Of a stretch of DNA of 64,000 nt, positions 29,494-34,061 are shown one piece after another. Numbering within the stretch: position 1 is the first letter of the stretch; each line of letters opens with the position of its first letter. The translations under genes were made by a program, and so were the position numbers. The notes below the pieces were generated by a model, which saw only the letters and a program-made list of their open reading frames with translations, was not told where the DNA came from and did no database searches. Where the stretch lies: NCBI GenBank assembly GCA_965203325.1, contig OZ241875.1, forward strand, positions 2,208,001-2,272,000. The letters are read 5' to 3'. The stretch comes from a bacterium. GTDB taxonomy: Bacteria; UBA8248.

Positions 29494-30134
29494 CCTTTCG
29501 CCCTCTCGATGCGATTGCGCAACTCCCTGGTCGCAACTCCCGGGTCGGACGCTCCCATCACAGCGCCGATAACGGCGACGCCGGAGGCGCCGGCTTCGAT
29601 GACGGGCTCCACGTTCTCGATACCGATTCCCCCGATGGCGACGGCGGGCAAGCCGGGGGCGTGTTCGATAATCCGCCGGAATCCTTCCGGCCCGATCGGC
29701 GTTCTCGCATCAGCCTTACTCCCCGTCGCATATACAGGGCCTACGCCGATATAATCCGCATCCTCGGCGGCGGCCCGCGACGCCCATTCGGATTTTCCGG
29801 CTGTAACGCCATAAAACAACGTATCTCCCGCCATCGCCCTGGCCCTCGAAATCGGAAAATCCTCCTGCCCCAGATGCACCCCGTTCGCGCCACAGGCCAT
29901 GGCGACATCCACCCGATCATTCACCGTAAAAGCGCAGCCGGTTCCTTCCAGAACCTCTCGCATTTCATCCGCCAGGCGAATCATCTCCACGCCGCTCAAG
30001 TTTTTCTCTCTAAGCTGGATCATACCGGCCCCGTTCGTCGCGGCTGCCCGAACCGCGTCCCTCAATTTCCACCCGGAAACCTGGGACAATATCTCCCGGT
30101 CGGTGATGACTGTCAGCGACAGGTCGAATTTCAT
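29490..30134 (-). CDS. thiE: Thiamine-phosphate synthase
   Basis: IQLREK, VNDRVD, GVHLGQED, T.SK, AIGGI. Confidence 0.95.
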   Translation of the reverse strand: MKFDLSLTVITDREILSQVSGWKLRDAVRAAATNGAGMIQLREKNLSGVEMIRLADEMREVLEGTGCAFTVNDRVDVAMACGANGVHLGQEDFPISRARAMAGDTLFYGVTAGKSEWASRAAAEDADYIGVGPVYATGSKADARTPIGPEGFRRIIEHAPGLPAVAIGGIGIENVEPVIEAGASGVAVIGAVMGASDPGVATRELRNRIERAKG

Positions 30135-30325
30135 GGGTCCCCCGATCAATCAAGAGCGAAACTACGATATTGATAATGAAACACTAGCATCATTAGAGGC
30201 AACGGCAATCCATGTCGGGGAATGTGTTCATCGATACGAGAAAACTTCCAAAGTTATGGAGCGTCTCTCTTGCGTAATTCTCCTGTGCTTGAGAACCTCT
30301 TCCCCCATCATCAGAGGAGGACGCC

Positions 30326-30925
30326 ATGAGCTGGATTCAGCCCATTTCCCCGGATGCCGCGGAGGGGGCCGCAAAAGAAATCATCGATGACCTGCGCAAG
30401 GCAGGAAAACCCATTCCCGGGATGTTTCTCGAGATGGGCAGGAGGCCCGATATTCTGGCCGGGCGTGAAACGCTCCGCCGCGCCGTTCATGGCGGCTCGA
30501 GCCTTGGTACTAGACGGGCGGAGCTCCTCGCTTTCTACGTGGCGGCTCACGGGGGGTGATACGGCTGAGCGATGAACCACGGGCAGTTGTTCCGTGACGA
30601 ATGCGATGACGCATCCATCGCCGAAGTAGCCGAGGTACTGGACGACCCGAAGCACGCGGGAATCCTCGACTCAGCGGACCGCACCATGCTCGCCTATGCG
30701 GAGAAGTTCACCCACACGCCTCACTCGATGAAAAAAACGGACATCGAAAGTCTGAGGGCCGCCGGCTTCAGCGAGGAGAGCATCGTGGACATTATCGCGG
30801 CCGTCTCCTACAGAAACTTCGCCAACTCGATCAACTACGCCTTCGGGCACGTGGAGCAAAATCCCGAAGGACCGAAAGAATTGCAGGATGCCATCGAGAG
30901 GTTGAAAAAGAAAATACGTGGCTGA
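30326..30925 (+). CDS. AhpD/CMD-family peroxidase-related protein, predicted selenoprotein with UxxU motif
   Basis: ORFs 30326-30559 and 30572-30925 share one frame; TGA at 30557 and 30566 give E-x11-U-x-x-U-x-x-x-H, matching AhpD E-x11-CxxCxxxH. Confidence 0.85.
30578..30596 (+). promoter_or_regulatory. Candidate bacterial SECIS hairpin
   Basis: CACGGGC-AGTT-GTTCCGTG stem with bulged U and GU-containing loop, 9 nt after the second UGA. Confidence 0.55.
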
Positions 30926-31661
30926 CAAATCACAATCCCTCTCATCAATATCGTATGTGGGTCTATTCATATCGGGTGCTTGCGCGCTGGTCGCCGTGGC
31001 GTCGGGCCTGGGCCATCGCTGGGAACTGTGGCATTTCAGCACGGGGTTCCAGATTTTCAAGTCCGCATCCGTCATCGCTCTCATCTCCGTCGCCGTCTCC
31101 ATGGCGGGTGGCTTGTTCGCTTTGCGAGACGCCTCCAGGCTCAAGACGCTGGCCGCCGCGCTCGGCATCGCACTCGGCTTCATCGTTGCGGGCTTTCTTC
31201 ACGCGCACATGCAGATCGCGAGACGGGTGCCCAAGATTCACGACATCACGACGGACACCCGGAATCCGCCCGCCTTTCAAGCCGTTCTCACGCTCAGGAC
31301 AGGGGCGAAGAACCCGCCCGCCTATGAGGGGGCGCGTATCGCGCGGCTCCAGAAAAAAGCGTATCCGGATATCAAACCACTTATTTTCCAAACTTCAAAA
31401 GAAGAAGTTTTCAAGCGCGCCCAGGATGCCGCGCACGCAATGAGCTGGCATGTGGTGTCGTCCAAACCAACCGAAGGACGCATCGAGGCCTATGACACGA
31501 CCTTCTGGTACGGCTTCATCGACGATATCGTCATACGGATCACGTCGAGCAGCGGAACGACGCGCCTCGACATCCGCTCGAAATCCCGCGTCGGCGTCGG
31601 CGACATCGGTGCGAATGCCAGACGAATTCGCGGATTTTTCGAGAAACTGAAAGTAAGATAG
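30918..31661 (+). CDS. DUF1499 membrane protein
   Basis: Three TM helices, IHDITTD, QKKAYPDI, GFIDDIVIR, RSKSRVG.GD.GANARRI. Confidence 0.9.
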   Translation: MADKSQSLSSISYVGLFISGACALVAVASGLGHRWELWHFSTGFQIFKSASVIALISVAVSMAGGLFALRDASRLKTLAAALGIALGFIVAGFLHAHMQIARRVPKIHDITTDTRNPPAFQAVLTLRTGAKNPPAYEGARIARLQKKAYPDIKPLIFQTSKEEVFKRAQDAAHAMSWHVVSSKPTEGRIEAYDTTFWYGFIDDIVIRITSSSGTTRLDIRSKSRVGVGDIGANARRIRGFFEKLKVR

Positions 31662-31733
31662 ACTCTGGTGTCTAATATTCATCGACGGGATTCACCATGA
31701 GACGATGCCTTGCACAAGGTGATGAGGGGTGAC

Positions 31734-34061
31734 ATGCCCGAATATCAGGTTCTGGGCAAATCCATACCGAGACTCGACTCCGCAGAGAAGGTCTCCGGAT
31801 ACGCCGATTTCGGCGATGATTTGAGAAGATCCGGCTGTCTCACTGCGAAATTGCTCCTGAGCCCGCACTCCCACGCCGAGATCAAGAAAATCGACACCAC
31901 CGATGCCTTGAAGGTTCCCGGCGTACACGCCATCGTCACGGCGGATGATTTTTCCGGTATCCGCCACGGCAGGCTCGTGCGCGATGAACCGCTGCTCGCC
32001 ATCGACAAGGTGCTTTACGTTGGCGAACGCGTGGCCGCCGTGGCCGCCGAAACCCACGAAGCCGCGCAAGCCGCGCTCGAGAAAATTCATGTCGATTACA
32101 AGGTGCTGCCCGCCGTGTTCACGACGGCCGACGCCATGAAGGAAGACGCCCCGCTCCTTCACGACTCACTGGATGATTACGCATCGTTTCCGGGTATCGT
32201 CCGCTACGGAAACGTGGCCGCCGATATTCTCATTCGCTCGGGCGATCCCATCGAAGATGCGCTCGCGCGCGCGGATTTCGTATTCGAGGACGAATACGAA
32301 ACACCCCGCGTTCACCAGAACTATCTCGAACCCCGCGCCATGCTCGCAGAACCCGGACCCGAGGACAGCACGATAGTCTATTCGCCCACCCAGGGGGCTT
32401 TCGTGGTGCGCGCCATCGCCTCGGAAATACTCGAACTCCCCATGAACAAACTGCGCGTCGTGAGCACCCATGTGGGCGGCGCGTTCGGCGGTAAATCCCA
32501 ACATCTGATGGAAGCCCTGGCCGTTCTTTTGAGCAGAAAGTCGAACCGGCCCGTTCAGTTGACTCTCAATCGCGAAGAGGAAACCATCACCGGAAACCCG
32601 AGGCACGCATACCGTATGCGCTATCGCACGGGCGTGACGCGGGAAGGGAAAATCATTGCGCGCCACGTACAAATCACCTCAAACAACGGCGCCTATTGCA
32701 TGACGGGACCGATGGTGCTGGGCAAATCCTGCTACACAAGCGCGGGGCCATATAAGATTCCAAACGTCAGGGTCGATGGTCTGCTCGTGTATACAAACCT
32801 TCCGCCCAGCGGTTCCTACCGGGGATTGGGCGTGGCGCAGGTCGCTTTCGCCTGCGAGCGCCATACCGACCGCATCGCCTCGGAACTGGAAATGGACCCG
32901 CTCGCCTTTCGAATCCTCAACGGGATGGATGAAAACGACGAGGACCCCGCAGGCACGATTCTGCAGAGCGTAAGCATCAAGGAAACGCTCGAGCGCGCGG
33001 GAAAGAAAGCGGGCTGGGGGAAGGGGAAAAAGAAAAACCGGAATAGCAGAATCAGGCGGGGGATGGGCATCGGCTGCGCACGCTATCCCACTGGTGGAGG
33101 GGCGTCGGGCGCCGTCGTGAAGGTGAACGAGGACGGGGGCCTGGCCGTGCTGGCCGGATGCGCCGATCTGGGTACGGGCGCGGCTACCGTGATGGCGCAG
33201 GTGGCGGCGGAGGTTCTTGGAGCCGAGGTCCAAAAGGTGAGCGTACGCATCGCCGACACCGAAACCACGCCCTTCGACGCCATCTCTGCAGGCAGCCGGA
33301 CCACGTTCAACATGGCGCACGCCGTGCGAATGGCGGCGGAAGACGCCCGCGAGCAAATGCTTCGCCAGGCGGCGCGCATGCTCGAATCCTCCCCGGAAGA
33401 CTTAAGCATAGGCGAGGGAAACATATTCGTCCGCGCGGCGCCCTCACGTGCCATCGCGTTCGCCGATGTGGCGTTTTCGGCCGTATGGAAAGGCGACGGC
33501 CCCGTGACCGGGCGCGGCTCCTACCGCGGGGAGAATCCTCCTCATCGCACGGACAACGTGCGCGGCCACCCCGAACCCTCGAGACCCGGGCCGGAATTCG
33601 CCACCCAAATCGCCGAAGTCGAAGTCGACACCGAAACAGGAGAAACCAGGGTGCTGAGAATCACCAGCGCGCAGGATGTGGGCTTCGCTATGAACCCCCT
33701 CACCCTGAACGGACAGATAGAGGGCGGCATCGCACAGGGGCTGGGCTGGGCCCTCGCCGAGCAGATCCACCACGAAGAGGGCATCATCGAGCATGCGGAT
33801 TTCGAGAGCCAACTCAATCCCACCAGTCTGGACGTCTCGGAAATCGAAAGCGTGATCGTGGAATCGCCCGACGTGGAAGGCCCCTACGGGGCGAAGGGAG
33901 CGGGAGAAATGCCGCTCATTCCTGCGGCGCCCGCGATAGCGAACGCGATAGCAGACGCCATCGGGGACCCGGCCAACCCGAACCTCAACACGTTGCCGAT
34001 TGCGCCGGAGGACGTCGTTCGCGCGGTTCGCGAAAGAAACGCCGCCGTATCGATTGATTAG
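31734..34061 (+). CDS. Xanthine dehydrogenase/CoxL family molybdopterin-binding subunit
   Basis: VGGAFGGK, YRGLG, GQIEGG..QG.G, GAKGAGE. Confidence 0.93.
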   Translation: MPEYQVLGKSIPRLDSAEKVSGYADFGDDLRRSGCLTAKLLLSPHSHAEIKKIDTTDALKVPGVHAIVTADDFSGIRHGRLVRDEPLLAIDKVLYVGERVAAVAAETHEAAQAALEKIHVDYKVLPAVFTTADAMKEDAPLLHDSLDDYASFPGIVRYGNVAADILIRSGDPIEDALARADFVFEDEYETPRVHQNYLEPRAMLAEPGPEDSTIVYSPTQGAFVVRAIASEILELPMNKLRVVSTHVGGAFGGKSQHLMEALAVLLSRKSNRPVQLTLNREEETITGNPRHAYRMRYRTGVTREGKIIARHVQITSNNGAYCMTGPMVLGKSCYTSAGPYKIPNVRVDGLLVYTNLPPSGSYRGLGVAQVAFACERHTDRIASELEMDPLAFRILNGMDENDEDPAGTILQSVSIKETLERAGKKAGWGKGKKKNRNSRIRRGMGIGCARYPTGGGASGAVVKVNEDGGLAVLAGCADLGTGAATVMAQVAAEVLGAEVQKVSVRIADTETTPFDAISAGSRTTFNMAHAVRMAAEDAREQMLRQAARMLESSPEDLSIGEGNIFVRAAPSRAIAFADVAFSAVWKGDGPVTGRGSYRGENPPHRTDNVRGHPEPSRPGPEFATQIAEVEVDTETGETRVLRITSAQDVGFAMNPLTLNGQIEGGIAQGLGWALAEQIHHEEGIIEHADFESQLNPTSLDVSEIESVIVESPDVEGPYGAKGAGEMPLIPAAPAIANAIADAIGDPANPNLNTLPIAPEDVVRAVRERNAAVSID

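Follow-up and report, generated by a model that had tools for sequence, protein, structure and literature searches.

An AhpD-like gene with two conserved in-frame UGA codons, probably a UxxU selenoprotein, and a candidate hairpin for their decoding

Results

The locus and its reading frame

The window analysed here is a stretch of 64,000 nucleotides (nt) from a bacterium of the UBA8248 lineage (contig OZ241875.1, positions 2,208,001 to 2,272,000), and the subject of this work is an AhpD-like gene within it that is interrupted by two in-frame TGA codons (Table 1). Because these TGAs stand at codons 78 and 81, translation with table 11 gives two open reading frames (ORFs) of 77 aa and 117 aa. 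The active-site sequence GGG-TGA-TAC-GGC-TGA-GCG-ATG-AAC-CAC was confirmed at positions 30554-30580, and the frame 30326-30925 reads as 199 residues followed by a stop, as the initial annotation had proposed when it joined the two short ORFs by read-through. With U for selenocysteine (Sec), the read-through product contains E66-x11-U78-Y-G-U81-A-M-N-H85, i.e. E-x11-U-x2-U-x3-H. E66, U78, U81 and H85 occupy exactly the positions of the AhpD spacing E-x11-CxxCxxxH that had been claimed for the protein. The gene apparently broken by two stops is regarded here as intact, and both stops most likely encode Sec.

Table 1. Features of the UxxU gene, its surroundings and two other sites of the same genome. 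Positions are those of the window unless a sequence handle is given; G000:C1 is the genome contig.
Feature	Position	Strand	Remarks
Predicted AhpD-like selenoprotein, coding sequence	30326..30925	+	ATG start, 199 codons, TGA stop at 30923-30925
Shine-Dalgarno-like sequence GAGGAGGA	30314..30321	+	4 nt upstream of the ATG; read directly
Glu66 codon (AhpD-type Glu)	30521..30523	+	12 residues ahead of the first Sec; E in 75/83 aligned homologues
UGA no. 1 (U78, codon 78)	30557..30559	+	TGA in 24/24 orthologues; TGC/TGT in 7/7 CYGU paralogues; Cys in other homologues
UGA no. 2 (U81, codon 81)	30566..30568	+	TGA in 24/24 orthologues and 7/7 paralogues; Sec position of known CxxU AhpD-like selenoproteins
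His85 codon (CxxCxxxH)	30578..30580	+	First three bases of hairpin A; H in 81/83 homologues; CAC in 24/24 orthologues
Hairpin A, candidate SECIS	30578..30596	+	7 pairs, bulged U at 30590, apical loop AGUU at 30585-30588
Stretch of low synonymous change, codons 79-105	30560..30640	+	Lowest in the gene, by synonymous codon entropy
DUF1499 membrane-protein gene	30918..31661	+	GTG start, overlaps the stop by 8 nt; PF07386 88.7 bits; N-terminal membrane region
CYGU (CxxU) sister paralogue	L025:1501-2097 (G000:C1:3808702-3809277)		Same genome; 48% identical; reads GGCYGUTMNHG
ARAGORN call 'tRNA-Cys(aca)'	L144:540-657 (G000:C1:3497434-3497528)		GC-rich hairpin

Conservation of the two TGA codons

A search of the phylum's 51 genomes found orthologues with two in-frame TGAs in 24, in three genera and at 52-92% identity. 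All of them translate as HGGUYGUA[M/V/I]NHG with TGA at both codons (24/24), and the terminal stop is variable among them (TAA in 18, TGA in 6). The ratio of nonsynonymous to synonymous substitution rates (dN/dS) was 0.14 for codons 1-77 and 0.23 from codon 106 onwards, at a dS of about 0.93. Divergent orthologues have GTC, GTA, ATT or GTG in place of the codon-83 ATG from which the 117-aa ORF is called, which indicates that independent initiation of a C-terminal protein lacks conservation. Each of the 24 matches in a large protein collection was a C-terminal piece of 117-118 aa, the gene callers having stopped at the TGAs throughout.

The DNA of one genome per prokaryotic species was scanned for the motif U-Y-G-U-x-x-N-H-G, and the 73 matches comprised 22 homologues, all from the lineage itself, and 51 chance occurrences. 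The scan across all phyla was limited to this exact motif, the looser U-x-x-U having too few fixed bases, so AhpD-like UxxU genes with other flanking residues may exist. A scan of metagenomes added nine loci, seven UxxU and two CxxU. Since the TGA pair is kept in 24/24 orthologues down to 52% identity, whereas 51 of the 73 bare-motif matches are unrelated sequences, the pair is more than a chance occurrence.

Both TGAs were also borne out by sequencing data. Contigs of an independent DNA run (X3) span the two codons with 0 and 2 differences, and contigs from RNA libraries (three runs from two studies, representing relatives 85-95% alike) bridge them as well; among the differences listed for the latter, none lies between 30527 and 30612. 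These comparisons indicate that selection acts on both UGAs and that a conserved open frame runs through the two of them.

Two rows with '2 TGA' at 31-32% identity (G036 and G040) were considered as further UxxU genes and rejected, as they are CFYU proteins in which the second TGA is the stop. In G024, a genome of the same genus, two identical fragments of 85 residues (G024:C4:127136-127390 and G024:C5:835962-836216) match residues 115-199 only, at 78% identity and with no stops, and no full UxxU gene was found in G024. They may represent either a remnant or a duplication in the assembly.

Protein family, active site and fold

A search of 1.8 billion representatives returned 1124 relatives. 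The alignment used here has 83 rows, 73 of them the full-length relatives among the 150 matches listed of the 1124, and 10 our own read-through sequences with C written for U. Cys, which had been expected in homologues at both Sec positions, stands at position 78 in 73/83 rows (Ser or Ala in the others) and at position 81 in 72/83, with Ser the main residue of the remaining rows; the Glu and His columns are given in Table 1. Two homologues, P0048 and P0082, read CFYW and CHYW at the CxxC site; because Trp at the Sec position suggests a TGA translated as Trp, they are probably mis-translated CxxU selenoproteins.

The alignment profile matched the solved AhpD-like proteins 6k40, 3c1l and 2oyo with E values of 3.3e-57, 1.3e-51 and 6.3e-50, respectively. 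The AlphaFold model of the protein (predicted local distance difference test score 96.5, predicted template-modelling score 0.91) has ten helices, with the active-site helix at residues 79-92. The best Foldseek match to the model was again 6k40, with template-modelling (TM) scores of 0.77/0.82 and 25% identity, and the top matches 6k40, 2prr, 2oyo and 3c1l lay at TM 0.70-0.82. With C written for U, the protein scored 83.4 bits against the model TIGR01926 'peroxidase-related enzyme' (cut-off 81.8). Fold, motif positions and TIGR01926 score agree with the initial assignment to the AhpD-like proteins. Our preferred interpretation, to which we give a probability of about 0.8, is that the protein is an AhpD-like (TIGR01926 / COG2128-type, carboxymuconolactone-decarboxylase (CMD) fold) thiol-type oxidoreductase in which both cysteines of the CxxC are UGA, most likely read as Sec.

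Selenocysteine machinery

The genome, a single contig of 4.39 Mb, contains a tRNA-Sec (75.9 bits) and encodes SelA (571 bits), SelB (393 bits) and SelD (333 bits), all above the cut-offs, so that the full set of selA, selB, selC and selD for which the initial annotation called is present. The selD gene (L019, G000:C1:1726679-1727641) has one in-frame TGA, and the selenophosphate synthetase is probably itself a selenoprotein.

A second selC-like tRNA was looked for because tRNA-ReC, which decodes UGA as Cys, is enriched in genomes with UXXU hydrogenases, according to PMC13582414. None was found by a scan of the genome with RF01852, in which 150 of 810 first-look candidates were scored: one match exceeded the cut-off, and the next seven were ordinary Leu, Ser and Tyr tRNAs. 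Whole-genome ARAGORN reported one tRNA-SeC, which has the sole UCA anticodon, and two ordinary 75-nt tRNA-Cys(GCA). A 95-nt ARAGORN call, 'tRNA-Cys(aca)', was considered as a recoding tRNA and rejected, as it is a long GC-rich hairpin that matches no tRNA model. ARAGORN also made four 72-nt calls of 'tRNA-Ala(cgc)' with the anticodon at position 29 (G000:C1:710499, 1257701, 2074666 and 2559617). These calls may stem from a repeat and not from tRNAs.

A hairpin downstream of both UGAs

The hairpin reported in the initial annotation, with its bulged U and AGUU loop, folds as described (hairpin A; Table 1), and its loop is 16 nt from the second UGA and 25 nt from the first. It occurs in 21/21 distinct UxxU sequences (alignment A1). 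In 20 of these the loop reads AGUU or GGUC, with G as its second base; in L045 it reads GUC, with G as its first. Across the alignment 92% of the cells were paired, versus 23-46% with the partner strand slid. The consensus for the bacterial selenocysteine insertion sequence (SECIS), as given in PMC13188914, is a loop of 3-9 nt with a G within its first two positions, a stem of 4-16 bp, a UGA-to-loop distance of 16-37 nt and a minimum free energy of -7.5 kcal/mol or below. Hairpin A fits this consensus in loop, stem, position of the G and spacing, the last for both UGAs, and on its own falls short of the energy limit (see Discussion). A scan of the window at Rfam gathering thresholds found a signal recognition particle RNA and two tRNAs only, and nothing in the gene.

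The region of the hairpin is also poor in synonymous change. Normalised synonymous entropy was 0.21 in codons 79-93 (12 columns) versus 0.49 elsewhere (153 columns), with a Mann-Whitney p of 2.7e-4 that is descriptive only, since the sequences are kin. Phe89 is TTC in 24/24 and Arg90 is CGT in 23/23, and Arg63 and Arg64 use three or four codons each. This reduction of synonymous change lends independent support to a putative insertion signal after the UGAs.

Twenty-eight other candidate selenoprotein genes of the genome were compared for the position of the hairpin loop. They came from a codon-bias scan that gave 1251 in-frame TGAs (mostly false, at 60% GC), of which 102 had a Cys/Sec motif and 29 were folded. 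The best loop, often GGUC or GUN, lay 18-24 nt past the U of the UGA in 20 genes, at +27 in 2 and at +30 at least in 6, figures that are indicative only because the genes were chosen by eye or motif and the 13 CMD/AhpD matches alone were checked individually. The same count puts hairpin A at +19 for the second UGA and +28 for the first, so that it straddles the 18-24 range.

The CxxU paralogues and the origin of the UxxU gene

The genome also holds a CYGU sister paralogue of the UxxU gene. At least 13 matches to the CMD/AhpD superfamily in the genome have an in-frame TGA, and two TGAs are found in the UxxU gene only; the more distant paralogues are likewise CxxU, such as the CFYU genes. Sites of this set on G000:C1, outside the window, include 3261473, 1653494, 1432271, 2009488, 1754520 and 2407451, and further 2629418, 3106811, 370581, 280533 and 3728968. 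Many copies carry the motif KTSxLNGCxYUxAHNTxLG and a hairpin with a GGUC loop 24 nt after the UGA. Judged by these motifs, the set is a large paralogous expansion of predicted CxxU selenoproteins.

The 24 UxxU sequences group into a single clade (support 100/99) in a maximum-likelihood tree; this clade is sister to the CxxU sequences, and the nearest outgroup is a Cys-Cys protein (CIGC). In the CxxU genes another hairpin is the stable one. This hairpin B (GCUUUC-CGUGCU-GAAAGC, alignment columns 34-51) has its loop 24 nt past the single UGA. Mean folding energies were -3.0 kcal/mol for hairpin A and -4.8 kcal/mol for hairpin B in CxxU sequences (n=7), and -6.3 and -0.4 kcal/mol, respectively, in UxxU sequences (n=21). 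The same split in stability was repeated in 9/9 metagenome loci; one CxxU sequence (L055) is without hairpin B.

The loop centres of hairpins A and B are separated by the same 9 nt as the two UGAs. Relative to the new first UGA (25 nt), hairpin A is placed nearly as hairpin B is relative to the old UGA (24 nt). From this geometry, the insertion signal seems to have moved upstream together with the new UGA. In the simplest history, UxxU would have arisen once from a CxxU ancestor by a change of TGY to TGA at the first Cys codon and would have been kept since. Meanwhile the stable hairpin would have switched from the one with its loop 24 nt past the single UGA to one about 9 nt further upstream.

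Gene neighbourhood and other candidate selenoproteins

Upstream of the UxxU gene, on the opposite strand, are thiE- and thiL-like genes. Downstream lie the overlapping DUF1499 gene and then a gene for a molybdenum hydroxylase large subunit. DUF1499 follows the UxxU gene in 20/24 loci, and the four orthologues from one genus have none within 1.5 kb. The DUF1499 gene is probably co-transcribed with the selenoprotein gene, to judge from this arrangement. Nothing of use came from a scan of 29900-31900 for promoters and terminators.

Five copies of the motif GDUGSCTxWSxHD were found outside the window (G000:C1:2370730, 1614270, 3101967, 3237187 and 1129042), with GUG, GUA or UGUAU hairpin loops 21-22 nt past the TGA, and these are candidate UGSC-type selenoproteins. 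Several peroxiredoxin (Prx)-like candidates of the types xHWUPYC and UxxC occur in the same genome.

Discussion

Comparison with known proteins

AhpD-like proteins with a single Sec were known, as the initial annotation stated. In the 2008 GOS survey (PMC2398784) and in a 2026 review (PMC13188914) the family is listed as CxxU with one Sec, and it appears likewise in a table of a 2022 review. The present protein resembles these CxxU proteins (TIGR01926 / COG2128 'AhpD-like 1') in family model, fold, E...CxxC...H spacing and Sec at the second position, and differs in that their first residue is Cys, whereas it is UGA in the UxxU gene.

UxxU motifs had been described as rare, with eukaryotic SelL as the classic case. 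SelL has a UxxU motif with an experimentally shown diselenide, a thioredoxin-like fold and a eukaryotic SECIS in the 3' untranslated region, and is unrelated to AhpD; the UxxU redox motif is what it has in common with the present protein, and fold and SECIS type differ. The motif is not confined to eukaryotes, so that this part of the description has to be amended. Bacterial UxxU is catalogued in a Prx-like oxidoreductase, the metal-binding NF041115 and an FmdB-family protein (PMC13188914; PMC2398784), and it is found in group 4 [NiFeSe] hydrogenases, for which a single downstream SECIS was proposed to serve both UGAs (PMC13582414). These families also have two UGAs 9 nt apart in place of CxxC, and differ in fold and function. 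AhpD-like proteins are catalogued only as CxxU. Literature searches yielded no report of a UxxU AhpD-like protein, BSepDB entries being outside their scope, and the one supplementary file of the BSepDB paper that was searched contained no AhpD or UxxU. UxxU is known in other bacterial families, and what is new here is the predicted two-Sec variant of the AhpD-like family.

The best match by both profile and fold, 6k40, is DR1765 of Deinococcus radiodurans. Its CxxC aligns with U78/U81, but its residues are cysteines and not selenocysteines, and it belongs to an unrelated phylum. AhpD of Mycobacterium tuberculosis (1knc, 1gu9) shares the catalytic arrangement of Glu, CxxC and His (Glu118/Cys130/Cys133/His137) on a CMD-type helical fold. 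It is a distant relative (profile E 1.6e-06 over residues 51-103, Foldseek TM 0.41-0.46) with another oligomer and domain layout.

Possible function of the Sec pair

By analogy with AhpD-like proteins that have CxxC, the Sec pair on the active-site helix would cycle between diselenol and diselenide, and the diselenol would reduce peroxides or an oxidised partner peroxiredoxin. We infer the diselenide chemistry and the role as peroxidase or peroxiredoxin reductase from this likeness.

It is unlikely, but worth weighing, that a real UxxU selenoprotein serves here for something other than peroxide defence, its Sec pair binding a soft metal or metalloid or dehalogenating like the CMD-fold debrominase Bmp8. 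Although Bmp8, a tetrabromopyrrole debrominase (6ohi/6ohj), has the same CMD/AhpD-type fold and is a detectable relative (profile E 7.4e-18, Foldseek TM 0.70), it is a Cys enzyme far more distant than the AhpD-like group, to which by far the closest solved relatives belong (E 1e-46 to 1e-57). The bacterial UxxU proteins catalogued include the metal-binding NF041115, and runs labelled sponge metagenome contain the stretch; the present protein, however, retains the AhpD proton-relay residues Glu and His. No peroxiredoxin partner adjoins the gene, but neither do metal-resistance or halogenase genes. According to PMC8945050, DR1765 guards against H2O2 via its CxxC cysteines: the mutant is H2O2-sensitive, and complementation requires both of them.

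Decoding of the two UGAs

We propose that one intragenic stem-loop (30578-30596) would recruit SelB and Sec-tRNASec for both codons. With the first UGA being decoded, hairpin A would be wholly outside the ribosome. At the second UGA, 9 nt on, the base of the hairpin would be about where the E. coli fdhF element sits, the minimal form of which is placed 11 nt after its UGA in PMC8659212. The hairpin would then be reused by a reloaded or second SelB before the release factor acts. Both the insertion of selenium and the use of a single SECIS for two UGAs are inferred here from sequence features. In its full form, namely that the change of the first Cys codon to UGA went with a rebuilding of the SECIS about 9 nt upstream, that one hairpin placed between the optimal distances gives two Sec insertions in quick succession, and that the product is the first diselenol/diselenide enzyme of the AhpD fold, the proposal is tentative, and we put it slightly below even odds.

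Several observations weigh against the selenoprotein and its decoding as interpreted here. The TIGR01926 cut-off was passed narrowly, and with the stops unscored the score is 68.4 bits; the Pfam CMD score of 20.5 is just under the cut-off of 23. The RNA contigs come from relatives at 85-95% likeness, RNA libraries can hold DNA, and 69 differences are outside those listed. Hairpin A alone folds at -6.1 kcal/mol, short of the -7.5 limit, and 4 of 200 shuffles fold equally well. It reaches -8.7 kcal/mol only with a GCG/UGC lower stem, which is lost in divergent orthologues, and in context it is no stabler than shuffles (z -0.75 for 70 nt, -0.02 for 37 nt). No compensatory change was found in hairpin A, with 0 pairs altered on both sides (shuffle control 217/500), and covariation gives no support, conservation among the sequences being too high. 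The stem is, in addition, part of the codons for the conserved His-Gly and Phe-Arg. The spacing of 16 nt to the second UGA is at the extreme edge of the SECIS model and below that of most of the other candidate selenoprotein genes in the genome. RNAalifold favours another consensus, in which UACGG between the UGAs is paired with CCGUG, with one compensatory change, and a hairpin scan from the first UGA selected a competing hairpin.

Some of these points bear on the reading of the first UGA. As the second position is the catalogued Sec of AhpD-like proteins, the second UGA alone might encode Sec, the first being read as Cys or Trp (by near-cognate decoding, by Cys-tRNASec or by an undetected tRNA-ReC-like tRNA), which would make the protein effectively CxxU. 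The first UGA is farther from its loop than in most candidate genes of the genome, but the 25 nt are inside the 16-37 nt window and near the 24 nt of the paralogue's hairpin. The 2026 study found tRNA-ReC-like genes enriched with UXXU hydrogenases and left the decoding of the motif open (PMC13582414); in the present genome, however, the RF01852 and ARAGORN scans gave no second selC-like tRNA, and both tRNA-Cys are of ordinary length and anticodon. The first TGA is moreover kept in 24/24 orthologues at a synonymous divergence of about 0.9, though TGC/TGT is one step away and functional in the paralogue. We consider a single Sec at the second position improbable.

There is likewise little probability that two Sec residues are inserted through separate signals, with mutually exclusive conformers (the UACGG:CCGUG long helix or an ACGGCUG:CAGUUGU hairpin) serving one UGA and hairpin A the other. 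RNAalifold pairs columns 7-11 with 39-43 for such a helix, but its support is one compensatory change (C-G to U-A) in one sequence, L047. The lowest-energy local hairpin after the first UGA is a competitor of this kind (-8.5 kcal/mol), and several orthologues adopt an alternative fold as their minimum-free-energy structure; the apical loops of these alternatives, however, are without the G[G/U] signature. Their 5' strands start 0-4 nt past the first UGA, and from the established dimensions of the mRNA channel the ribosome would cover them while that codon is decoded.

It is very improbable that this is a dead gene, or that it yields a 77-residue fragment by termination at the first UGA, with the rest untranslated or made separately. 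Gene callers do split it everywhere, and 24/24 database matches are the C-terminal 117-118 aa; but both halves are under purifying selection in one frame, the true stop varies and the internal TGAs never do, no restart codon is conserved, and the active-site helix (79-92) would be severed from its Glu.

Significance for the AhpD-like family

The preferred interpretation, an AhpD-like protein with Sec at both positions, implies that a rare two-selenium active site is kept in a group of uncultured marine bacteria. Because public gene calls cut the gene to 117-118 residues, selenoproteome counts for the lineage miss or halve it.

A pair of UGAs 9 nt apart is puzzling because in bacteria each UGA needs its insertion signal at a defined distance. 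How bacteria decode such pairs was raised, and not settled, in the 2026 hydrogenase study (PMC13582414). There the SECIS core is conserved between the CXXU and UXXU types of group 4 hydrogenases, whereas in the AhpD-like pair the position of the hairpin differs. The genes described here offer a clean test case: a UxxU clade of single origin and a CxxU sister in the same cell, with one tRNA-Sec, one SelB, and hairpins offset by about the UGA-UGA distance. The main value of the finding lies in this matched CxxU/UxxU pair with differently placed hairpins, and, if the proposal is true, the sisters would be a natural matched pair for studying how the ribosome reuses one SECIS.

A diselenide centre has a redox potential much below that of CxxU or CxxC, as is established in selenium chemistry. 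The AhpD-like selenoprotein family would thus be extended to a two-selenium centre, probably working at a much lower redox potential than its CxxU and CxxC relatives.

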